Source of the DNA: a virus | UHGV virus genome: UHGV-1371021 | Strand: one strand, 5' to 3' | Length of the DNA stretch: 48,593 nt | Part shown: positions 2,831 to 32,853 of the stretch, in pieces | Position numbering within the stretch: position 1 is the stretch's first letter | Layout: every line of letters begins with the position of its first letter | Made by a program: the position numbers and the translations under genes | Notes under the pieces: model-generated | Database searches by the model: none | The model's input: the letters and a program-made list of their open reading frames with translations, nothing else | What the model was told of the DNA's origin: nothing

Positions 2831-4380
2831 TTCAACCTCGGATTAATGTGGACAGTATTACCAATAAAAACGCAGTAACCATCCTCTTCAAGTGATGGTA
2901 ATACACTTGATCTGAGTCGGTCATAAATTTTAGGTATACCTTTGAATGGTCGCACGTTTTTAAGTGAATCATAAAGCCACTTCACCGTTACGTTTGTTTT
3001 TCCTTTCTGAGCGGCAGAGCGTAGCTTTTCGGCAACAACATCAAATTCAGAACGCTCGCCAGCATATCCATTTGATTCCACGGCGTCGGTGAATGTTTTT
3101 GTCAGTGCGTCATAAACACTGATAGCTCGACTAATTTCATTCTCACCGATAATCTTTGAACGCTTTCCTCCATCGCACCAGTTTTCAGCAGCGTGAAATA
3201 TTGCTGCCAGACGGATTATTTGCTTATCAGCTTTACCCATCGCGCCACGAAGAAGAACGTGGTCCCACTTACCGCCGGGAAGGAAGTTTTTCTCCCACTG
3301 ATTTCGTAACAGGCCGATCATTCTTGCTGAGTCATTGTGAAGCGTCAGTTTTGTTTTTTCTGCTGACACAACATTATGTATAAATCTTGCATATTCCGAC
3401 CTCAAGCTGTCTGGCATTGGCTTGCTTACAGGGCAATCATTAACCATGTCCCAGTGTTCGCGATAGCCAAGCATTGATTGCTCGCGCAACATCAGGAAAC
3501 GCTCAGAAAGCCCGTTACCCCTGTCGCCAGCGGCAAGAATGGCATCAATACTTTCATCCTGCGCAATCACACTTATGTTTCCAAGAACATAACCAGATGA
3601 AACGCCACGACCAACACGAGCAGAACCAATAAATCCACCATCCCAGCCCTTCAGGATTACTTCGGCGTTTGCCTTTCCACCTTCTTTTCCGTAAGAAAGG
3701 CCAAGGCAGGTGTTAAGAACGCTTGCCTCGTCACTTATCAGATTAAAAAAACCACCTTCATGAATGGCCTGATGCTGGACAGCCTCCGGCGTTGCATCCG
3801 TCAGTGGATATGTAATCGTATAAAGCTCATCCAGCTTCTCCTTTTCGCGAGCAATATCGTCGCCGATTAGTGCCTTTGCATTCTGGTTGCTGGCCTCCTT
3901 GTATGCCTTCATCAACTCTTCAATGCGAAGATTTATTTTTATGATCTGCTTTTCCATATTTTTGGAAAGGTTGTCATATTCAATCTTCACCGGATTCATA
4001 TGCATTGAGTTGATAGCGGTTTTCCCTGCTGATGGAGGCTGAGAAGTAACCACGTAAAGAGAAACTGGAAGTTCTGAATGGTAATACTCAACGCTAAAGT
4101 TTCTCGTCATTGCGCTGGCAACGCACCCAAGTAAATGCATGAACGATGTATTTATTGGGAACTGAACGGCACGAGCTGCAGCGATTGCATAACGAGACAG
4201 CAAATCAGTACGGTGCTCACTGGTGAGTTCTGTTTCTGAGTACGTTACATCACGCTCCTTGCCTTCCTTGATGTCAAGCCACATGTTTGAGCTTGGTGTC
4301 ATGCCATGATGGAAGGCAACACGAGCCGGAGATACTTTTAACTCCCTTGCTTCATTGAAGATATCTTGCGCTGTGATCAT
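2827..4380 (-). CDS. replication-associated protein, DUF3987-like (primase/helicase-associated family, tentative)
   Basis: 517-aa ORF adjacent to the primase. P-loop-like PPSAGKT. Family assignment is from memory of DUF3987 architecture and is not verified. Confidence 0.6.
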   Translation of the reverse strand: MITAQDIFNEARELKVSPARVAFHHGMTPSSNMWLDIKEGKERDVTYSETELTSEHRTDLLSRYAIAAARAVQFPINTSFMHLLGCVASAMTRNFSVEYYHSELPVSLYVVTSQPPSAGKTAINSMHMNPVKIEYDNLSKNMEKQIIKINLRIEELMKAYKEASNQNAKALIGDDIAREKEKLDELYTITYPLTDATPEAVQHQAIHEGGFFNLISDEASVLNTCLGLSYGKEGGKANAEVILKGWDGGFIGSARVGRGVSSGYVLGNISVIAQDESIDAILAAGDRGNGLSERFLMLREQSMLGYREHWDMVNDCPVSKPMPDSLRSEYARFIHNVVSAEKTKLTLHNDSARMIGLLRNQWEKNFLPGGKWDHVLLRGAMGKADKQIIRLAAIFHAAENWCDGGKRSKIIGENEISRAISVYDALTKTFTDAVESNGYAGERSEFDVVAEKLRSAAQKGKTNVTVKWLYDSLKNVRPFKGIPKIYDRLRSSVLPSLEEDGYCVFIGNTVHINPRLK

Positions 4381-4653
4381 TTAAACCTCGTACTCTGTTT
4401 CAAATTTCTCATGAGGATTTTCTGATAACCATTCCTTGGCTCTCAAAACTGCAGCGTTTGCTTCCTCTGCCGTTTCAAACATACCAAGCTCATATCTTTT
4501 CTTGAGTACCATCACTCTCGCTCTGAATTTTTTTGATGCCTTGTGGTAATCAACACCGTAGTATCCAGTGGTTGATTTTGATGATGCAACCCACCCAGCA
4601 CCACGACCTTGCTTGTTTAATTTACGCTTTAACAATACGCCATGATTGCTCAT
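4381..4653 (-). CDS. stand-alone AP2-domain DNA-binding protein (90 aa)
   Basis: GYYGV.YHK..KKFRARV....K...LG.F.T.EEA..A pattern typical of AP2 domains found in HNH homing endonucleases. First gene of the leftward operon, immediately next to the palindromic repeats. Confidence 0.6.
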   Translation of the reverse strand: MSNHGVLLKRKLNKQGRGAGWVASSKSTTGYYGVDYHKASKKFRARVMVLKKRYELGMFETAEEANAAVLRAKEWLSENPHEKFETEYEV

Positions 4654-4749
4654 TTCCGCTCCAAAATCAATTATTTCCCCAAAAGACTACCACCAATTCC
4701 CCAGCATTGCAACACAACCAAAAGCGCCAAAAGGGGTAAATTGGGTTAA

Positions 4750-4774
4750 CGTGGGGCAACCAACCTGCCCCACG
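4750..4774. repeat. perfect 25-bp palindrome CGTGGGGCA-ACCAACC-TGCCCCACG (copy 1)
   Basis: Exact inverted repeat with 9-bp arms and a 7-nt centre. Identical copy at 4981..5005. Confidence 0.9.
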
Positions 4775-4775
4775 G

Positions 4776-4979
4776 AACTTTACTCTAAGTATATGTAATA
4801 TAATAAAATTATTATTATTTGGGTTAATGGGTAATATTATTATTCATATTATAGATAGTAATTAACATAATATTAACAAATGGATTATTTGAATATATTT
4901 ATAAGGGGATGGGTATGAAATCTGCCCCTTTTACCCACGAAAAATAAAAAACATTCAAATCAATGATTTACGATGAAAA
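4776..4979. other. AT-rich ~200-bp spacer between the palindromes, a candidate DNA unwinding element or origin core
   Basis: Very AT-rich, no ORF above 15 codons. Contains degenerate TGCCCC/ACCCACG half-sites at 4925..4941. Confidence 0.45.
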
Positions 4980-5495: not shown

Positions 5496-5587
5496 CAGGA
5501 GCAGCATTCGAGCTTATCGCCAGTCTGGTTATCGTGGCATTCATCATTATCGCAGTGGCAGTTTCTAAATCAGGTTATAAGGAGTAA
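5492..5587 (+). CDS. small hydrophobic peptide (31 aa, single TM)
   Basis: ATGA overlap with the upstream stop. LIASLVIVAFIIIAVAV. Confidence 0.3.
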   Translation: MTGAAFELIASLVIVAFIIIAVAVSKSGYKE

Positions 5588-6570: not shown

Positions 6571-6728
6571 GCGATTATTTAAAGCCTGGTGAGATTCGCT
6601 GCTGGTCGTGCAAGCAGTGGATGTCGAATAACGAGTTTCAGAATGCTGATGGATATTGCGTTCATTGCGACGCGCCAATTGATGTTCTGGATGAGCCGTA
6701 TATTGATATTCAAGAGGCAGCCCAATGA
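6567..6728 (+). CDS. small zinc-ribbon protein (53 aa, CxxC...CxxC)
   Basis: ATGA-coupled ORF. CWSC...CVHC. Confidence 0.45.
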   Translation: MSDYLKPGEIRCWSCKQWMSNNEFQNADGYCVHCDAPIDVLDEPYIDIQEAAQ

Positions 6729-7348
6729 AAGCACTCAACAAACAGGTACACCAAACTGAAAACGAGCGCATGGCTCAGTCTCTGGCAGAAAGAAATGGCG
6801 AACCAGTTGAAGGTTTGCGCCAGCGCATTTCAGAGCTTGAAGAAATCGCCAATGACTACGGAATGAAGTTCCAGAAGGCTCAGGACGCTTTAAAGCATCA
6901 GGCTCTGCTGCATAAATCTCAGTTGGAAGCCGCAGAGAACAACCTCATTGATAGCGAATGTCATGTTGCTGAACTGGAGGAAGCTCTACGTGATAAACAG
7001 GCGTTACTTGAGGTGCTGGATAATTCCCTCTGCGAACTCCTGCCCGGAACTCAGTACATGGATCCTCCAGATGGTGGCAGCGTTACACCACTGGAACAAG
7101 TGCGACGGATGGTTGCTGACTACCGGAATCGGATTGCAGAACTGGAGGCGCGGACGTTCAAACCAGTTATGTTCATTGACGGCGATATTTCACCTGCTGA
7201 CGCCGACAAGCTGGCTTCTGTAATTCGAGGGTTCAACGAAGAAACAGAAACTCCAGCAGCAAGAATGGCGAGGATTATTCGCGAAAATCCACATCCAACA
7301 AACATGTGCGATATGCCAGCCGCTGGCATTGGCGTGAAGGGGGAGTGA
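6725..7348 (+). CDS. hypothetical coiled-coil protein (207 aa)
   Basis: ORF track entry. Heptad-rich E/L/Q sequence. Confidence 0.6.
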   Translation: MKALNKQVHQTENERMAQSLAERNGEPVEGLRQRISELEEIANDYGMKFQKAQDALKHQALLHKSQLEAAENNLIDSECHVAELEEALRDKQALLEVLDNSLCELLPGTQYMDPPDGGSVTPLEQVRRMVADYRNRIAELEARTFKPVMFIDGDISPADADKLASVIRGFNEETETPAARMARIIRENPHPTNMCDMPAAGIGVKGE

Positions 7349-7351
7349 GAT

Positions 7352-7507
7352 ATGTGGGTATTAATTATCTGGATGATTGGCAGCAGCCCATCAATCGCCA
7401 CTCAGGAATTTAACTCAGAATCATCATGCCGAGCCGCATTTGCTGAAGTAAAAAAGGTAAACGACGGTGGGGTATATCTTCGTGGCGCATGTACGCCAAA
7501 GGACTAA
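7352..7507 (+). CDS. hypothetical small protein (51 aa)
   Basis: GGGGGAG RBS. N-terminal hydrophobic segment. Confidence 0.35.
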   Translation: MWVLIIWMIGSSPSIATQEFNSESSCRAAFAEVKKVNDGGVYLRGACTPKD

Positions 7508-7509
7508 CC

Positions 7510-8445
7510 ATGACAACTAACAACCACCCGGCGCACGGTCCTGTATCACTCGATCGCCTGCACCAGATACGCGAAATACTCAGCAAAGCATCAGCACAAA
7601 GCGACGGCGGTAATCTCGGCTACGCAATGGCTGATGCTGTGAAGGCGATTGATGAAGTGCTGGTAGCGAGGAATGCGGAGCCGGTTTTTTTCATTGAGAT
7701 TGAGGGCGACGACTGGATTCAGGCTGGCAGGATTCCAGGCAGTACATTTGACTTTAATAACCTGCCAGACGGTATCAATAAGCTTTTCGCTACCCCGCCA
7801 GTGCCGGTAGTGCCGGATGAAAAGTGTGATGATGACGGTAACACCACGTCTGAGTTTGATTACGGCTGGAACGCCTGTCGCACCGCCATGCTTCAGGGTA
7901 AAGCTGAACCTGCAAGCGAGCCTTGCAAGTTGCGTGAGCAGGTACGCCGTGAACATGCAGCATGGTCACTGGCTACTTTCGGGGATGTCGGCCCAGTTGG
8001 TCCGCTGAAGCACCTTTCCAAAGAAGCGCTCGAGGCCGCTGCGGAACCAGGCGACCTTAGCGAATGGGCTGACATGCAATTCCTGTTATGGGATGCGCAA
8101 CGTCGTGCCGGTATCAGTGATGAGCAGATTACCCTGGCGATGGTAGAAAAGTTGGCGGTTAACAAACAGCGCGAATGGCCTGAGCCGAAAGATGGTGAGC
8201 CACGACTGCACATCAAGAAGGCTGGCAACTCTCCGGTAACTCTTGATACATGGATTCCGGTAAGCGAGCGGATGCCGGAAAAGGGACAGGAAGTGTTGTG
8301 CACAGACCAGTTTCATAACTACGAAACAGCACTGTACGACATAGGTTACATACCAGGACCACCATTTTTCGCGACAACAGCTGGGGAGTTTCATCCAACC
8401 CACTGGATGCCACTGCCAGCAGCACCGAGGCAGGAGGATTTATGA
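7510..8445 (+). CDS. hypothetical protein with a C-terminal DUF551-like domain
   Basis: AAGGA RBS before ATG 7510 (track start 7489 is in frame). C-terminus ...HPTHWMPLPAAP matches the DUF551 signature and resembles the ORF at 34373..34639. Confidence 0.6.
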   Translation: MTTNNHPAHGPVSLDRLHQIREILSKASAQSDGGNLGYAMADAVKAIDEVLVARNAEPVFFIEIEGDDWIQAGRIPGSTFDFNNLPDGINKLFATPPVPVVPDEKCDDDGNTTSEFDYGWNACRTAMLQGKAEPASEPCKLREQVRREHAAWSLATFGDVGPVGPLKHLSKEALEAAAEPGDLSEWADMQFLLWDAQRRAGISDEQITLAMVEKLAVNKQREWPEPKDGEPRLHIKKAGNSPVTLDTWIPVSERMPEKGQEVLCTDQFHNYETALYDIGYIPGPPFFATTAGEFHPTHWMPLPAAPRQEDL

Positions 8446-8543
8446 TTAACCGCAAGCGCTACTCAAAAGGCGCAAAAGTATTTCTTGCAATGTATGTGGT
8501 GACATTTATCGTAATTGTTGCTGCTATGGTGCATGTGCTATGA
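8442..8543 (+). CDS. small hydrophobic peptide (33 aa)
   Basis: ATGA-coupled. Single TM. Confidence 0.3.
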   Translation: MINRKRYSKGAKVFLAMYVVTFIVIVAAMVHVL

Positions 8544-8695
8544 AAACCACAAAGCAGAAAGTATGGCACAGTGCAAAGCAAAACGGCCTGGACGAATTTA
8601 TCACAAAGGTAGCAAAAGCATTTCCTGATGCGATTGAGGTCGTTGTTATCGAGACGCCAACTAAAACGGAGTGGGCATATGCAAAAGAGCAGTAA
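8540..8695 (+). CDS. hypothetical small protein (51 aa)
   Basis: ATGA-coupled ORF. Confidence 0.35.
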   Translation: MKTTKQKVWHSAKQNGLDEFITKVAKAFPDAIEVVVIETPTKTEWAYAKEQ

Positions 8696-8699
8696 TCGC

Positions 8700-8777
8700 A
8701 TGGCATGGTGTTTGTGCTTAGCATCAGCAGTAGTCACTTGCATCTGGATTTACATGCTTGCTCACTGGATGCTATAA
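8700..8777 (+). CDS. small hydrophobic peptide (25 aa)
   Basis: Last ORF of the early operon. Its stop lies inside a TGCTATAAT element. Confidence 0.25.
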   Translation: MAWCLCLASAVVTCIWIYMLAHWML

Positions 8778-8807
8778 TCAAGAAAACATCACCTCACATC
8801 ACCTTTT

Positions 8808-8834
8808 AACCCTCCTTGTGAGGGTTCTTTTTTA
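8808..8834. terminator. Rho-independent terminator ending the early rightward operon (aaccctcCTTGTgagggtt + T-run)
   Basis: Stem-loop plus a 6-T run. The hairpin is near-identical in sequence to the one at 12626..12652. Confidence 0.7.
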
Positions 8835-8889
8835 TCTACGCCAGTGTGTTAAAATCATGGTATGTGAATTACTCAAAGAACACATAGAC

Positions 8890-9333
8890 ATGGCAAATCC
8901 AAACCCAAAACACAAATTTTCATCTACAAATCAGCCGCCACCCAGAGGAAAAAGCTACAGAGCAGTTCTCCTTGAGGCATTACGTGCTGCAAACAGCCCG
9001 ATGAATGAAGTTGAATTCGTTACCTATTACATCAACCGCGCGATGACGTGCGATGACGCTCAGGCTACAGGGATGCTGCGTGAAATATTCCTGCGCCTCA
9101 ACCCGATTCCGAAACCTGTTGCTCCACCGATTGAATTCGACTTCCCGGCAGATGGAAATCCCGTCGAAAAGATGGACGCTATCATCAAAGGCGTATCAAC
9201 TGGCGCTGTTCCTGCTGATATCGGCAAGATGATGGCTGACATTATCAAGTCTGGGCTGGATATTCAGGAAGTCACTGAACTGGCGCAGCGCCTTGAGCGA
9301 CTGGAGAAATTACTGGAGCAGCAGAATGGATGA
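8890..9333 (+). CDS. putative terminase small subunit
   Basis: Basic N-terminus (MANPNPKHK...). Immediately upstream of the large terminase. Start chosen at ATG 8890. The track ORF begins at 8758 inside the terminator. Confidence 0.5.
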   Translation: MANPNPKHKFSSTNQPPPRGKSYRAVLLEALRAANSPMNEVEFVTYYINRAMTCDDAQATGMLREIFLRLNPIPKPVAPPIEFDFPADGNPVEKMDAIIKGVSTGAVPADIGKMMADIIKSGLDIQEVTELAQRLERLEKLLEQQNG

Positions 9334-9478
9334 TGAAGCAAATAAATATAAATCAAAATGTGATGAGGTGCTATTGCCACGCAACAGCAGTAGTCGCGGC
9401 GTTACATTTGATAAAGCAATGACGGATGAAGAGGTGATGGATGTTTTGCAGGGGTTAATCAATGGCTCGTAAACGCCT
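9326..9478 (+). CDS. hypothetical small protein (50 aa) between the terminase genes
   Basis: Overlaps both neighbouring genes. Acidic. Confidence 0.35.
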
Positions 9479-10883
9479 ATCAGCCCTGGCAATAGAAAAG
9501 CTGGAGGCGCAGGTTGATGATGTGCTGACTGAAGTTGCTGAGTCAGCCATTTTCGGCATCTGTGATATGCAGAAGAGCGTCGTTAAGCGCCTCAGAATGA
9601 CCGCTACAGGCGTGGAGGATGTTACCCATGCAACCACGCAGGCAGACCATTTAATCCCCGCAAAACTGGAGAGGCTGCTTTATCCGAAGCCATGGAAGGT
9701 TGTATATGGCGGCCGTGGTTCGGCAAAGACTCGCACGGTGTCGACAATCCTTACTGAGTCGGCAAGATTCAAATCTGAACGTATCGGGTGCTTCCGCGAG
9801 ATTCAGCAATCAATTGAAGACTCCAGCTATCAGGAACTGGTGGATGAAATTGATCGCAAAGGAGAATCAAAAGAATATCGTTGTATTGATGGCAAGATTA
9901 CCCACAAGAAGACTAAATCAAAGTTCCGTTTCCGTGGCCTTTATCGAAACGTGACTGGCGTTAAGGGTTTCGCTGGCATCACGAAGGCATGGATTGAGGA
10001 AGCTGAAAACGTCAGTCAGGCATCGTGGGATATCCTTGAACCTACCGTGCGCAACCCCGGTGCTGAGATATGGGTGACATTCAACCCCAACAAAGAAACC
10101 GATGCCACATGGACGCGATGGGTTGCCCCGTGGCACAACAAAATGGTCAACGGAATTTACGAGGATGATGAAATACTCATCATTGAGTGTAACTGGACCG
10201 ATAACCCATGGATGACAGAGGAGTTAATCCGCTCAAAAGATAAAATGAAGCGCGTCGACTTCGATCGCTATATGTGGATATGGGAAGGAAAATTTAACAA
10301 ACGTAGCGACGAGCAAGTTTTCGGCGGCAAATGGCGTATTGATAACTTCGAGGTCAAATCTGAATGGCATGGGCCATATTTCGGGATGGACTTCGGGTTT
10401 TCCACTGATCCCACCGCAATGGTTGAAGTTTACATCGAAGAATTACCAGGTGGACGGCGCAACATTTATATTAATCGCGAATATGGCAAGGTTGGGCTTG
10501 AGATTACTGATACGCCAGCCGCGATGGAGCAATCATTCCCGATGGCTAAGCGCGCGCGATGGTATGCAGACTGCGCTCGACCTGAAACTATCAGCCACAT
10601 CAAGCGTTCTGGATTCGATATTCACCCATGCACAAAATGGCCGGGAAGCGTTGAGGATGGCGTTACGTGGCTGCGTGGGTGCGATAGTATCATCATTCAC
10701 GAGCGGTGCAAGGAAATGCAGAATGAGGCGGCAATGTACAGCTACAAAGTCGATAAGCTGACAGGGAATGTGCTGACTGATATTGTTGATGCATATAACC
10801 ATTACTGGGATGCGGTTCGTTACGCACTTAATGACCACATCGTTCAGCGCGGTAGCGGTATGCTAATCCGACGCAGGCGATAA
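9462..10883 (+). CDS. terL: terminase large subunit
   Basis: Walker A VYGGRGSAKT. N-terminal ATPase followed by a C-terminal nuclease-like region. 473 aa. Confidence 0.9.
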   Translation: MARKRLSALAIEKLEAQVDDVLTEVAESAIFGICDMQKSVVKRLRMTATGVEDVTHATTQADHLIPAKLERLLYPKPWKVVYGGRGSAKTRTVSTILTESARFKSERIGCFREIQQSIEDSSYQELVDEIDRKGESKEYRCIDGKITHKKTKSKFRFRGLYRNVTGVKGFAGITKAWIEEAENVSQASWDILEPTVRNPGAEIWVTFNPNKETDATWTRWVAPWHNKMVNGIYEDDEILIIECNWTDNPWMTEELIRSKDKMKRVDFDRYMWIWEGKFNKRSDEQVFGGKWRIDNFEVKSEWHGPYFGMDFGFSTDPTAMVEVYIEELPGGRRNIYINREYGKVGLEITDTPAAMEQSFPMAKRARWYADCARPETISHIKRSGFDIHPCTKWPGSVEDGVTWLRGCDSIIIHERCKEMQNEAAMYSYKVDKLTGNVLTDIVDAYNHYWDAVRYALNDHIVQRGSGMLIRRRR

Positions 10884-26755: not shown

Positions 26756-26790
26756 AAAAGAAAAGCCCCGCGAGGGGCTTTGTTTATTGT
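26756..26790. terminator. bidirectional Rho-independent terminator (aaagccccGCGAggggcttt)
   Basis: GC stem with an A-run and a T-run. Lies between convergent operons. Confidence 0.8.
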
Positions 26791-26969
26791 TTATCCGGGT
26801 CGGCGTAGAAATTCAGTAGCTTTATGAAATCTCTTTTCCCTGAATGATTAAGATAAAATCCAGCAATTTCACTAAACGCTTCGTTTGCCGCTCTTACACT
26901 GCAACCCATATTTAAAGCATCACGCGCTGCAATGGCTGCACTTTTTGTTTTTTCTTTAATGCTCATCAC
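26784..26969 (-). CDS. hypothetical protein (61 aa)
   Basis: Last gene of the leftward 8-gene operon. Its stop is inside the terminator. Confidence 0.45.
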   Translation of the reverse strand: MMSIKEKTKSAAIAARDALNMGCSVRAANEAFSEIAGFYLNHSGKRDFIKLLNFYADPDKQ

Positions 26970-27505
26970 TAAATCCTCATTGGCATAACAATAACTTTTG
27001 CTGTCTCGCCAGTTGGAGCGCTGACACTGGCAACGGCGGCGTTAGTATTGCCATTCAGGTCAAAGCGCACGCCTTCCCATTTCGGATTAAACAATTTCGC
27101 CAGCTTTTCAGCATCTGCCAGGTATTTTGCATTGAAGCCGATTTTCTCGGCTGGCGCAGTCTGTTTTGGAATGACGCGATCAATATCCGGGAATCTCCCG
27201 TCAATAACTTCGCAGATACCAGCACCGACCATTACATCAAGTTCATCGTGATAAGTGACCATTTTTGTTTTAGTGTCCAGCACTGCATATGAGTAGCGCT
27301 TTAACGGTGACTTGCTGACTGACACAATCACGTTATCAGTGAGTTTATTTTCATGCTTACTGGCAATGAATGCGCGATGACCGTCAGTAGCTGCAACGCG
27401 ACCATCCGGCATAAAACAGATGCCATTGAGGTAGTAACGCACATCATTCTTGGCCTGAAACATCAATGAGCCTTCGAGTAATAACTTGCTGATTTTTAAT
27501 TTCAT
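26969..27505 (-). CDS. truncated DnaN-like DNA polymerase III beta sliding-clamp homologue (domains II-III only, 178 aa)
   Basis: [9 protein letters not shown]..F...G..[11 protein letters not shown] matches E. coli DnaN [47 protein letters not shown] matches [27 protein letters not shown] matches EIGFNVSYVLDV. C-terminal VIVMPMRI matches VVMPMRL. It lacks clamp domain I. Start at ATG 27505 (TGATG overlap with the upstream stop). The track start at 27547 is in frame but overlaps the 57-aa ORF. Confidence 0.7.
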   Translation of the reverse strand: [178 protein letters not shown]

Positions 27506-27678
27506 CACTTTACCTTTATCATGTGTTGTTTTGCGACTTTCAGGCACTCATCAAAAATACTACCTTTCTTCGCGCTCTGATGACGCCTGTAATGCTCAAT
27601 CGCTGCATCAATTGCGCGCTGGTCGATATCTGGTAGCTTGGCGCTGAGTTGTTTTTCTATGAATTGTTCTGGGGTCAT
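27505..27678 (-). CDS. hypothetical protein (57 aa)
   Basis: ATGA- and TGATG-coupled between its neighbours. Below the track cutoff. Confidence 0.4.
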   Translation of the reverse strand: MTPEQFIEKQLSAKLPDIDQRAIDAAIEHYRRHQSAKKGSIFDECLKVAKQHMIKVK

Positions 27679-27899
27679 TTGTAGTTATCCTTCAGTTCAG
27701 CAATCATGTCATCTATGCACCTATCAGATTCAACATAATCACCACTTGCATTTTCAATGCAGGAAATCATTTCTTCAACACTAAAGTCAGATATGAGCAT
27801 AAATTCAATAATGCAATACATAGCAATTCTGAACTCATCATCTGAGTTGCATTGATTAAGTATATCTTTGATTGCGCACGTTACTTGTTGTTGATTCAT
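27675..27899 (-). CDS. small highly acidic protein (74 aa), possible DNA mimic
   Basis: D/E-rich sequence (SDDEF..EEMISCIENASGDYVESDRCIDDMIAELKD). ATGA-coupled. Confidence 0.5.
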   Translation of the reverse strand: MNQQQVTCAIKDILNQCNSDDEFRIAMYCIIEFMLISDFSVEEMISCIENASGDYVESDRCIDDMIAELKDNYK

Positions 27900-28708
27900 T
27901 TCATCTGCTCCAAAATCGCCATAACTTCCTGAATATCCTTCGCCTGAATCTGGATGAACTCTTCATCTTCTGGCATCACAAAGCCAGCCATGAATCGCAC
28001 ATGGTCAGCATCTTTCAGCAACTCAACCAGACGGTCAACTGGCTTAACCTTTTTCGCTTTGAGCACTTTAGCGGTAACTTTATCCTTGCCTTGCGCCTTT
28101 GCCTCAGTAACAGCTTCGTCGATAACCTTGACGGCATCATCACCATGCTCGCGGGTCACGGCAACAGCATTGGCATAGCTAATCTGCCCTAAGTTAATGC
28201 GCTCCTTGATTTCTGGTGGCACATCACCCAATGACAGATGCATTTGCACATCGGAAACTGAGCGACCAACTTTCTTAGCGATTTCCTCGTTAGTCCAGCC
28301 AAACCCTTTCAGACGCACATATGCTTTTGCACGTTCAAATGGGTCAAGCTGTTTACCCTGGCTTGATGACACCATGAATGCGATTTTGTCAGCTTCGTCG
28401 CCAGTGAAATCTTTGCACTCAATACGCGCGATAGGTGCGCCGCGTTCAATGGCCTTCAATGCGCCAAGATAGCGATGCTGACCATCAAGAATGCGGATTC
28501 CCTTCTCGTCCGGAATAACTGTTAATGCTGGCAGTGGCTGACCTGACTCCCAGCACTGTGCGAAATACTCCACATGCTGCTCATCTGCTTCACGGATGTT
28601 ATATCCCGGCTCCAGATAGATTTGCTCAACTGGCACGAGATAGGTTTTGTTAACAGCGATGCCGTTACGCGTTTCTTTGTCTGAATATATTTTGCTGAGT
28701 GTTTTCAT
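27896..28708 (-). CDS. ParB-like nuclease-domain protein with HTH (270 aa)
   Basis: ParB N-terminal motif IRILDGQHRYLGALKA, plus an HTH segment (GWTNEEIAKKVGRSVSDVQ). Confidence 0.75.
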   Translation of the reverse strand: MKTLSKIYSDKETRNGIAVNKTYLVPVEQIYLEPGYNIREADEQHVEYFAQCWESGQPLPALTVIPDEKGIRILDGQHRYLGALKAIERGAPIARIECKDFTGDEADKIAFMVSSSQGKQLDPFERAKAYVRLKGFGWTNEEIAKKVGRSVSDVQMHLSLGDVPPEIKERINLGQISYANAVAVTREHGDDAVKVIDEAVTEAKAQGKDKVTAKVLKAKKVKPVDRLVELLKDADHVRFMAGFVMPEDEEFIQIQAKDIQEVMAILEQMK

Positions 28709-29076
28709 TTTTTCTTTCCTAATGCTTTCTTGATCGCTTTGTTAGCCAGATTTAACGGATGGTCATCATGACAGTCATCGGAAGATACAGCGCAAACATC
28801 ATCAACGTAATCGCGAAGCTGGCGAAGTGCTTCGAGTAATTCTGGCGCTGCGGCTACTAACTTTGCATTCGACAAATGCTCAATGCGTGATACATCCCTA
28901 TGAGCGCCTTCATCGCTCCAGTGTTCAAACCCAGCCTTCTCCCAACCGGGGATAATTGCTATAGAATTAATCACCCTAATAATCCCAAAACCATTATCAT
29001 CAACTACATCAGTATAAACTTCATGGCGCTTAACGCACTCCCACTCACCTTTCGTACCCTTGAATTCATCTTTCAT
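28705..29076 (-). CDS. hypothetical protein (~123 aa), paralogue of 47350..47688
   Basis: Shares M.(D/N)EFKGTKG(E/P)W, AAAPELL.A...L and C-terminal AIKKALGK with the other copy. Confidence 0.55.
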   Translation of the reverse strand: MKDEFKGTKGEWECVKRHEVYTDVVDDNGFGIIRVINSIAIIPGWEKAGFEHWSDEGAHRDVSRIEHLSNAKLVAAAPELLEALRQLRDYVDDVCAVSSDDCHDDHPLNLANKAIKKALGKKK

Positions 29077-29275
29077 TTGATTCACCACTTTCTTCTAATA
29101 AAAGTTCATAGTTTGCAATGTATGCATTGGCCAGATGATACATTTGCTCTGCGGCGCAGCATTCTGGGCCGCTGAAGTCATCAATAGAGCCAGCATTGCT
29201 GAGTGCATCAACACAATTACGAAAATCAATCACGGTATTGCGGAACATACAGTAGTACATGTTTGCCATGATCAC
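29066..29275 (-). CDS. hypothetical protein (69 aa, Cys-rich)
   Basis: ORF track entry. Coupled to its neighbours. Confidence 0.45.
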   Translation of the reverse strand: MIMANMYYCMFRNTVIDFRNCVDALSNAGSIDDFSGPECCAAEQMYHLANAYIANYELLLEESGESNER

Positions 29276-29895
29276 TCCTCATCACCAGAATTAGCAATAT
29301 CGTAAAACTGACCGTAGGTTATCTGCTTAAAATCGTCAGGTATTGTTACCTGCCCATGACCTTCATCTTTTGTATTTGGCACGGCAAAAATCAGGCAATC
29401 ATCCTTTTGCGGGTGTTTGCCGCCATAAGTAGACAGCATTGCAAAACAAAGTCCGCGACCTGATTGCTCACAAATGCCCGTGCGCGCAATTCCATAATGA
29501 TTAACTATGTAGTCTTTCCATTCTGGCAATAACTTTAATTGCTCATTTGCTTCTCGCATCACTGCGTCCAGCTTTTTGTTGTATTCACGACCATCCTTTG
29601 TGTTTCCTTTCCCACGAGCCACAATTACACGCTGACCTTCCCAGAAGTCTTCGCGCTTTATTGTCACAGGGCACGGAAATTCAAACTGCTTACTCCACAC
29701 AAAGCTCTCAAGTAAGCCACCACCGACTGCTCCCCAGCTACGTGTCGTGGTGAAAGCGATAGCGCCAACCTTTTTCATTGCATCACCGAGAATTTCATTG
29801 CGGCGCTTTTGGATGTCATCATATGAGTCAATAACTTTCTTAACATCAGCACCTTCAACCATGTAATAATCATAATGTTTTGCGTTGCTGCTCAT
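29272..29895 (-). CDS. hypothetical protein (~207 aa), first gene of the leftward operon
   Basis: Track ORF starts at 29913. I place the start at ATG 29895, 6 nt after GAGGTG in the conserved leader GAGGTGATGAAGATG. Confidence 0.55.
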   Translation of the reverse strand: MSSNAKHYDYYMVEGADVKKVIDSYDDIQKRRNEILGDAMKKVGAIAFTTTRSWGAVGGGLLESFVWSKQFEFPCPVTIKREDFWEGQRVIVARGKGNTKDGREYNKKLDAVMREANEQLKLLPEWKDYIVNHYGIARTGICEQSGRGLCFAMLSTYGGKHPQKDDCLIFAVPNTKDEGHGQVTIPDDFKQITYGQFYDIANSGDEE

Positions 29896-29935
29896 CTTCA
29901 TCACCTCTAGCATTTATTGTTGTTTCTACGTCATT

Positions 29936-29964
29936 ACTATAAACACCCCATCAATCTACGTCAA
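29936..29964 (-). promoter_or_regulatory. leftward promoter TTGACG-N17-TATAGT driving the 29895..26784 operon
   Basis: Near-consensus hexamers with 17-bp spacing about 35 nt upstream of ATG 29895. Embedded in ATCTACGTCA motifs. Confidence 0.5.
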
Positions 29965-32374: not shown

Positions 32375-32853
32375 TTATTTGCCGTGATTGCTATGAAATT
32401 CGGGGCTTATCTCAGCAGACTTTCTGGCACATACAGCCTCGAAGAAATCATCAAAATAACCAAGCACGACCCTGCTCTTATTTTTTTGGATATACGACAC
32501 CCATAAACACTTAACCTTGTGCCAACTTACACCACACACTCCTGATGAATTGTTTTTGTATTTACTCTTATTTTGCATATTTATTAACTTGCTAACGATC
32601 CTTAAATTCTCGATCCTATTATCAATCTTGTCGTGGTTTATGTGGTCAATTTCCATTCCGTCGGTATTGCGCCGTTATGCATTTCCCATATGATGCGGTG
32701 CGCTAAATGCTTAGACTTACCAATCTTAACCCTAATGTATCCATTGTCATCAACTGTTCCAGCTTTTGTCATGGCCTTAATTCTGTTATTCCCGGCTGGT
32801 GCAGACCAGTACAGCTCACCATTTATGTACGTGAATAATGAATTTAAATTCAT
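32375..32853 (-). pseudogene. HNH_3 + AP2 homing endonuclease split into 71-aa and 93-aa ORFs by a frameshift near 32640..32656
   Basis: N-terminal ORF has GYIRV.IGKSKHLAHRIIWEMHNGAIP (HNH_3). The second ORF continues EIDHINHDKIDNRIENLRIV plus AP2-like SGVCGVSW......VVLGYFDDFFEAV. Intact homologues have these in one frame. Confidence 0.55.

Follow-up and report, generated by a model that had tools for sequence, protein, structure and literature searches.

Short phage homologues of the DnaN sliding clamp with a strongly conserved, putative protein-binding pocket

The virus genome UHGV-1371021 (a stretch of 48,593 nucleotides, here called the window) carries on its minus strand an open reading frame (ORF) for a half-size homologue of DnaN, the bacterial β clamp, which we refer to as the mini-clamp. 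The ORF, which lies in an operon running antisense to the surrounding genes, starts with an ATG at 27505 and ends with a TAG at 26971–26969 (Table 1). A Shine–Dalgarno-like AAGG is found about 9 nucleotides 5′ of the ATG, and the ATG shares the sequence ATGA with the stop codon of a 57-amino acid (aa) gene upstream. Use of an alternative GTG start at 27547 would lead to a protein of 192 aa; the majority of family members begin at the position of M1.

A phmmer search of the PDB matched the E. coli clamp (1mmi) with an E-value of 1.4e-13, aligning residues 7–157 with DnaN 136–292 and residues 120–178 with DnaN 315–366, and a profile made from the mini-clamp family matched E. coli DnaN with E = 1e-34. 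Pfam PF02767 (the central domain) was found on residues 18–107 with 21.7 bits, and PF02768 on residues 118–177 with 15.6 bits, the latter through profile positions 69–121 only; both scores are under the gathering threshold of 27. The N-terminal domain of DnaN, PF00712, had no match in the mini-clamp at E ≤ 10, and the score against the NCBIfam dnaN equivalog TIGR00663 was 39.9 bits, below the cut-off of 137.65. The protein does not have the three-domain architecture of canonical DnaN, and its alignment begins at about DnaN residue 130–136. Judged by these scores, the likeness to DnaN is far above chance. An earlier note on this DNA had described the ORF as a half-size DnaN homologue that starts around DnaN residue 130 and lacks domain I; the phmmer search, the family profile and the predicted fold (see below) all agree with this description.

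The same note had pointed to four landmark motifs in common with DnaN. All of them are present, although the note gave the spacing of the third slightly wrongly. Conservation of the motifs, and of a further segment, IGFNAKY, was assessed in an alignment of 135 family members. In DVRYYLNG, residues D21, R23, Y25, L26 and G28 are 93–97% conserved, and in ATDGHR the values are 91% for T40, 98% for G42 and 92% for H43. P106 in the third motif is 98% conserved, Y128 and N125 in IGFNAKY are conserved at 92% and 70%, respectively, and the C-terminal VIVMPMRI has M174 at 95%, P175 at 92% and R177 at 81%.

Table 1. Positions of the mini-clamp, its parts and the associated features in the window.
Feature	Position	Strand	Description
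Mini-clamp ORF	26969..27505	minus	Half-size DnaN (β clamp) homologue; 178 aa + stop codon
DVRYYLNG, aa 21–28	27422..27445	minus	Aligns with DnaN D150–G157; R23 and L26 in pocket subsite I
ATDGHR, aa 39–44	27374..27391	minus	Aligns with DnaN A171–R176; T40, G42, H43 and R44 are pocket residues
Third motif, aa 102–114	27164..27202	minus	Aligns with DnaN D238–K250, interdomain connector; contributes P106, R110 and V111 to the pocket
IGFNAKY, aa 122–128	27122..27142	minus	Aligns with DnaN I317–Y323; N125 and Y128 in pocket subsite II
VIVMPMRI, aa 171–178	26972..26995	minus	Aligns with DnaN C-terminal strand V359–L366, pocket wall
DnaN domain II equivalent, aa 1–114	27164..27505	minus	DnaN ~130–250; PF02767 and alignment to DnaN 136–250
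7-residue linker and one β-α-β-β-β unit, aa 115–178	26972..27163	minus	Second half of DnaN domain III, ~314–366
Eight-gene antisense operon	26784..29913	minus	Between head and tail modules; ORFs, PHROG/Pfam matches, IME207 synteny
σ70-like promoter, TTGACG-17-TATAGT	29936..29964	minus	5′ of the first gene of the operon; 10/12 consensus matches, pattern match only
Bidirectional intrinsic-terminator-like hairpin, AAAGCCCCGCGAGGGGCTTT	26762..26781	both	Common end of two operons, the antisense one and the head operon upstream; consensus match only
57-aa gene	27505..27678	minus	PHROG 4439, function unknown; ATGA overlap with mini-clamp start
ParB-like helix-turn-helix protein, 270 aa	27896..28708	minus	PF17762, PHROG 1033; in the antisense operon of the mini-clamp

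The structure of the monomer was predicted with AlphaFold2, a check that the earlier note had proposed, using an alignment of the query with 134 cluster representatives of 160–225 aa that are 28–50% identical to it. The model has a mean predicted local distance difference test score (pLDDT) of 97.3 and a predicted template modelling score (pTM) of 0.91, and displays the DNA-clamp fold with its repeated β-α-β-β-β units. According to DSSP, the model comprises three units, with the arrangements β-α-β-β-β, β-(loop)-β-β-β and (barely paired strand)-α-β-β-β. In the domain II equivalent, helix α2′ (DnaN ~197–208) is replaced by a short loop, with no helix between the strands at residues 59–63 and 73–77, a loss that the earlier note had missed.

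A larger deletion is found in domain III. The interdomain connector RVIPK (RVLPK in DnaN, residues 246–250) runs into a 7-residue linker, followed directly by IGFNAKY (DnaN 317–323). The 66 residues of DnaN 251–316 are thereby reduced to seven, a net loss of about 59 residues; the deletion of roughly 45 aa given previously is thus real, but its size was put too low. A profile made from the C-terminal 64 residues of the family alignment scored 34.7 bits, end to end, against DnaN 310–366, and 7.6 bits against DnaN 248–313. The lost piece is therefore the entire first half of domain III, a whole β-α-β-β-β unit.

In the topology of the clamp, the C-terminal three-stranded meander of each domain makes a continuous sheet with the preceding domain. 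The retained unit would therefore pack on domain II and build the partner pocket, and the deleted unit would be the one that touches domain I of the other subunit. Replacement of I272 and L273 by alanine gives a monomeric β clamp (PMC11139829), and both residues fall inside the lost segment. The mini-clamp lacks the canonical head-to-tail dimer interface between domain I and domain III with I272/L273. Since DnaN 251–316 with I272/L273 and the second helix of domain II are lost, a canonical ring, or a heterodimer with the host β clamp, is unlikely. The earlier statement that no homodimeric ring could close is supported, as domain I is absent along with half of domain III; the accompanying suggestion that the domain III dimer interface may be kept is not supported, given the match of the C-terminal unit to DnaN 310–366 and the loss of I272/L273. 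Compared to DnaN (E. coli P0A988; PDB 1mmi, 2pol), the mini-clamp thus has 178 instead of 366 aa, lacks domain I, DnaN 251–316 and α2′, and would not form the canonical dimeric ring. It is also basic, with an isoelectric point (pI) of 9.15 (family median 8.3), whereas E. coli DnaN is acidic (5.25).

The part that remains holds the pocket by which the β clamp binds proteins with a clamp-binding motif (CBM). In E. coli DnaN, subsite I of this pocket is made up of R152, L155, T172, G174, H175, R176, L177, P242, R246, V247, V360 and M362, and subsite II of H175, N320, Y323, V344, M362, P363, M364 and R365 (PMC11139829). Of the 17 pocket residues that could be mapped, 15 are the same in the mini-clamp as in E. 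coli, the exceptions being L177, replaced by Ala, and V360, replaced by Ile. Twelve columns of the 135-member alignment are at least 90% conserved (D21, R23, Y25, L26, G28, T40, G42, H43, P106, Y128, M174 and P175), and nine of them belong to the pocket (Fisher p = 1.2e-8). The mean conservation was 0.77 for pocket positions and 0.36 for the others. The CBM pocket therefore appears to be kept, and the cleft between domains II and III that the earlier note had thought might be retained comprises the best-conserved positions of the family. Nei–Gojobori ratios of nonsynonymous to synonymous substitutions (dN/dS) among 22 close homologues (207 pairs) had a median of 0.10 and did not exceed 0.24, values that should be taken qualitatively, as dS is close to saturation. 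Together, these data point to strong purifying selection centred on the CBM pocket. We considered the possibility that the gene is a pseudogene or remnant, but this was ruled out by the dN/dS of about 0.1 and the very confident predicted fold.

Among 1.84 billion cluster representatives, an exhaustive HMMER search detected 2,764 proteins with E ≤ 1e-3, of which 225 reached E ≤ 1e-10. The top 150 matches were, with few exceptions, 165–225 aa long, and full-length DnaN first appeared at an E-value of about 1e-13. Phage databases, which the earlier note had suggested searching for DnaN fragments of similar length, hold many: the gene was found by tblastn in 286 phage records, with hosts including Salmonella, Escherichia, Vibrio, Klebsiella, Burkholderia, Proteus and Acinetobacter, and BFVD contains viral models of 180–210 aa with template modelling scores of 0.8–0.9, as well as weaker matches in phages of Rhodococcus, Gordonia, Bacillus and Xanthomonas. 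A blastn search of 5,426 complete E. coli genomes gave no match; thus, close relatives are not resident E. coli prophages. A plasmid search returned only phage-plasmid-like contexts and chromosomal dnaN.

The mini-clamp matched PHROG 3007 from end to end (E = 9e-58; query 1–178 on profile positions 1–186 of 190), and is a member of a known, functionally uncharacterised phage family rather than something categorically new. Short phage homologues of the polymerase III β subunit were already noted by Kazlauskas and Venclovas in 2011, who presumed that clamp homologues likely to have come from horizontal transfer are dispensable for replication (PMC3201878). Like the mini-clamp, these proteins and those of PHROG 3007 are phage-encoded, about half the length of DnaN (~170–220 aa) and restricted to domains II–III. 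What is added here to the 2011 description is that only half of domain III is present, that the pocket is conserved, that the family is very large, and that it occurs in two characteristic genomic contexts. Full-text literature searches found no functional study of short phage DnaN homologues. The Dhillonvirus papers on KpAvs2/Ksap1 and anti-Tmn are not about this gene, nor does it come up in a proteomics paper on a Dhillonvirus.

GenBank submitters have mostly named the protein “DNA polymerase III beta subunit”. PHROG 3007, however, is labelled “RusA-like Holliday junction resolvase”, and this label has been carried on in RefSeq records NC_031924, NC_054636, NC_054649 and others. Family and fold searches detected no RusA signature or fold in the mini-clamp, and the label therefore appears to be a spreading annotation error. 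A RusA-like resolvase, for which the PHROG label and the RefSeq product names are the only arguments, is refuted by these searches and has practically no probability left.

The window appears to be a siphovirus genome in its entirety, with Shuimuvirus IME207, Citrobacter phage K1M, Sf11, swi2 and C1 as its nearest relatives (~83–87% identity over parts of the region). The phage encodes a replication and recombination set of primase, helicase, single-stranded DNA-binding protein (SSB), Sak4-like ATPase and exonuclease VIII. No DNA polymerase is encoded: there is no unassigned ORF of fitting size in the window, and the Dhillonvirus polymerase (see below) had no tblastn match in it. IME207 likewise has primase, helicase, SSB and recombinases, with no DNA polymerase annotated. 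Replication of the phage must therefore depend on host Pol III. The ORF annotation of the window also includes no clamp loader.

The antisense operon comprises, in the order of transcription, genes for proteins of 213, 69 and 127 aa, the 270-aa ParB-like protein, proteins of 74 and 57 aa, the mini-clamp as the seventh, and a 61-aa protein. The 57-aa gene is present in 48 of 49 close relatives, in most of them directly upstream of the mini-clamp gene, to which its ATGA overlap suggests that it is translationally coupled. Its product is a possible lineage-specific partner of the mini-clamp. The acidic 74-aa protein (27675–27899, minus strand) matched PHROG 14587, “anti-restriction protein”, with E = 1e-9, a match which suggests that the operon is a host-interaction cassette. 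Seven proteins of the operon were compared with the PADLOC defence-system models and gave no match.

In three other lytic lineages, the mini-clamp gene is also antisense to the structural genes around it and comes with signals of its own. σ70-like promoters and terminators flank it in two of these, in which it stands alone: Guernseyvirinae SE1, with TTGACA-17-TATTGT about 30 nucleotides upstream, and Proteus Gorganvirus RS10pmA, with TTGACA-17-TAGAGT and a strong terminator behind the gene. In Escherichia phage rolling, a Dhillonvirus, the promoter match is weaker (9/12) and the mini-clamp lies beside gp40 (4174–4938), an Nmad5 gene (PF18757, E = 7e-56). A ParB link was considered for Dhillonvirus, but rejected, since the neighbouring gene is Nmad5 and not ParB. 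The Nmad5 gene has been reported as a trigger of Tmn defence in Dhillonvirus. Identical GC-rich hairpins, GGGGCCATCACGGCCCC, are present in rolling at 4946–4962 and 5522–5538, one on each side of the mini-clamp, like a bracketed cassette. The gp14 of rolling is a putative DNA polymerase of its own, of the family-A type. With a polymerase in rolling and none in UHGV-1371021, the occurrence of the family does not depend on whether a phage has its own polymerase.

The second context is that of temperate phages. When IMG/VR was scanned for DVRYYLNG, 369 loci were obtained, and neighbouring genes were clustered for the 32 most distant of the loci retrieved (36–51% identity). In these distant loci, about 30 lambdoid contigs, an S24 repressor on the opposite strand is followed by CII, the mini-clamp, replication protein O, a DnaB-type helicase and NinB/NinX. 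The same order was found in an isolate, Hafnia phage yong1, in which rexB-rexA-cI are followed by cro-cII-miniclamp-Phage_rep_org_N-DNA replication protein and, further on, by NinB-NinG-NinH. From this order of cII, mini-clamp and replication initiator it follows that the gene heads the replication module in temperate phages. In a Klebsiella phage-plasmid, the gene is located in the early region, close to a Rha regulator and a helicase.

Two further features were seen in one of the lambdoid loci (L078). Its 797-aa DnaB-type helicase (7820–10213) has a weak LAGLIDADG match (21.7 bits, just below the cut-off) between the N- and C-terminal helicase domains, which suggests that the helicase contains an intein. 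The replication protein O homologue of the same locus (6657–7823) has an extra T5orf172 (GIY-YIG-like) domain after the O domain.

We propose that the mini-clamp is a stand-alone, non-ring clamp-pocket module that would have descended from gammaproteobacterial DnaN. Domain II minus its second helix and the last unit of domain III, the elements that form the hydrophobic CBM pocket in DnaN, have been kept, and everything that a ring needs has been lost, i.e., domain I, one channel-lining helix, and the half of domain III that carries I272/L273. The gene appears to be transcribed from a host-type σ70 promoter, independently of the surrounding late structural genes. The pocket would dock the CBM of host proteins that are clients of β, such as Pol III α or ε, δ, Hda, Pol I, II, IV or V, MutS, MutL or ligase, and the mini-clamp would act as a loader-independent adaptor or competitor that re-routes these clients during phage DNA replication. 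We give roughly an even chance to this proposal, that the mini-clamp binds CBM-bearing host replisome or repair proteins as such an adaptor or competitor and thereby serves phage DNA replication. The link to replication draws on the gene order in lambdoid phages, on the dependence of this phage and IME207 on host Pol III, and on the report that lambda raises the translation of host DnaN to aid its own replication (see below). A decoy for CBM proteins was among the roles put forward in the earlier note, and a decoy or adaptor for such proteins appears to be the best-supported reading.

The phage itself was also searched for ligands. A scan of 72 candidate ORFs of the window for the canonical CBM (Q[LMIVA]x[LMI]F), the hexamer and looser patterns gave loose matches only. 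Nothing was found in the helicase, the exonuclease, SSB or the Sak4-like protein, and the primase had a single loose match, QAAIM. The sequence QLSAKL in the 57-aa protein was rejected as a CBM, as it is not conserved and reads KNLREKL in many relatives. When the neighbourhoods were compared, no partner gene was found to be conserved across phage lineages. In the light of both results, the most probable ligand is a protein of the host that has β as its usual docking site. We infer that the pocket would bind CBM peptides and that it would either recruit or sequester the proteins that carry them.

Phages have repeatedly targeted or exploited the β clamp and its pocket. The clamp of S. aureus is bound by Gp168 of phage Twort (PDB 7evp), Mu MuC enlists β through a clamp-binding motif for late transcription (PMC12867686), and T4 gp45 serves late transcription (PMC7892883). 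In addition, a small RNA of lambda is reported to raise the translation of host dnaN and to affect phage DNA replication (bioRxiv 10.1101/2024.10.31.621285). Gp168 and MuC bind the host clamp, whereas the mini-clamp copies the binding site of the clamp and so would act on its clients; the mini-clamp resembles neither of these two proteins in sequence or fold.

Several points weigh against the proposal. The intactness of the pocket was judged from sequence conservation and the statistics of rigid-body superposition. Full-length DnaN, too, is most conserved at the pocket residues, so that folding constraints on the sheet between domains II and III could explain part of their conservation here, and the pocket positions R176, L177 (Ala in the mini-clamp) and M364 vary within the family. 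Sequestering Pol III or δ would be self-defeating for a phage without a polymerase such as this one. Furthermore, because the family is found in phages with and without a family-A-type polymerase, a single simple role, e.g., sequestration of Pol III, does not fit all of its carriers.

Among the alternatives, a processivity or tethering factor resembling UL42 of herpes simplex virus 1 (HSV-1) overlaps with the clamp-pocket module, and differs from it solely in needing DNA binding and a positive effect on synthesis. Here, a basic monomer or head-to-head dimer would bind duplex DNA without encircling it and, with no need for a clamp loader, would hold a polymerase on the phage DNA, be it Pol III or Pol I of the host or, in the relatives, that of the phage. 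The basic charge of the mini-clamp leaves room for DNA binding, but the channel-lining helix α2′ is gone, and family-A phage polymerases are not known to use β. UL42 and its counterpart UL44 of human cytomegalovirus (HCMV) have two full clamp domains, a different polymerase-binding site and no detectable sequence similarity to the mini-clamp, and their DNA binding was shown by experiment, whereas for the mini-clamp it is suggested by the pI only. We regard this alternative as unlikely, and a processivity factor for a phage enzyme, as put forward in the earlier note, is improbable in this phage, which encodes no DNA polymerase. Processivity could also be conferred by a true ring assembled from more subunits, e.g., four subunits of one and a half domains each, giving six domain equivalents. 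With two helices left for three units, the sheet for the “tail” side of the head-to-tail interface deleted, no clamp loader encoded, and an overall basic charge unlike that of ring clamps, such a ring is scarcely credible.

Alternatively, the protein could cap or poison the clamp by pairing with host β, through either the dimer interface or an interface that has opened, so as to block ring closure or loading and stop host replication. A DnaN homologue of this kind would be expected to expose the β-sheet edges on which the missing parts, domain I and the N-terminal half of domain III, otherwise pack, and other phages target β, as does Twort with Gp168. However, both halves of the canonical interface are gone, i.e., domain I and DnaN 251–316 including I272/L273, and the loss of this last segment weakens the poison subunit envisaged in the earlier note, which would heterodimerise with host β. 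Moreover, the strongest selection is on the pocket residues and not on the edge strands, and a polymerase-less phage needs host Pol III and its clamp. A poison subunit therefore seems to us highly improbable. We hold equally little belief in an accessory role, in which the mini-clamp would tether a base-modifying or ParB-type protein to replicating DNA. The operon shared with a ParB-like protein in this phage and IME207, the adjoining Nmad5 gene in rolling, and the mycobacteriophage Corndog, in which genes for a β clamp and a ParB-like protein are reported to share a leftward region (PMC4351075), would be in keeping with such a role. It is at odds with the solitary gene in SE1 and RS10pmA and with the cII and O flanks in lambdoid phages; furthermore, the ParB-like protein has no canonical CBM, only a loose QMHLSL inside the helix-turn-helix region.

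Returning to the clamp-pocket module, a wider claim can be put forward, although we hold it only tentatively and consider it rather doubtful: that the family represents a widespread class of phage host takeover, in which a loader-independent mimic of the docking site captures clients such as the Pol III core, δ or Hda for the phage origin or forks, by a route common to lambdoid temperate phages and several lytic siphovirus groups. The β-clamp pocket is the hub that gives bacterial polymerases, repair enzymes and replication regulators access to DNA, and is an antibiotic target; hundreds of phage lineages hold a minimal, strongly conserved copy of just this pocket. Its presence at the head of a temperate replication module points to an as yet unexplored means by which phages could manipulate the host replisome. 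A specific and easily testable hypothesis of replisome hijacking arises from the pocket-only anatomy, together with how large the family is and where the gene lies in lambdoid phages, between cII and the initiator. As a well-folded and probably monomeric module of 20 kDa, the mini-clamp could also serve as a soluble trap for CBM proteins or as a scaffold on which to screen pocket inhibitors.

Elsewhere in the window, two small ORFs on the minus strand are related to HNH proteins: a 90-aa ORF that matches the HNH-associated part of several PHROGs, and a 93-aa ORF starting MEIDHINHDKIDNR, located at 4381–4653 and 32375–32656, respectively. Both are probably remnants of homing endonucleases.

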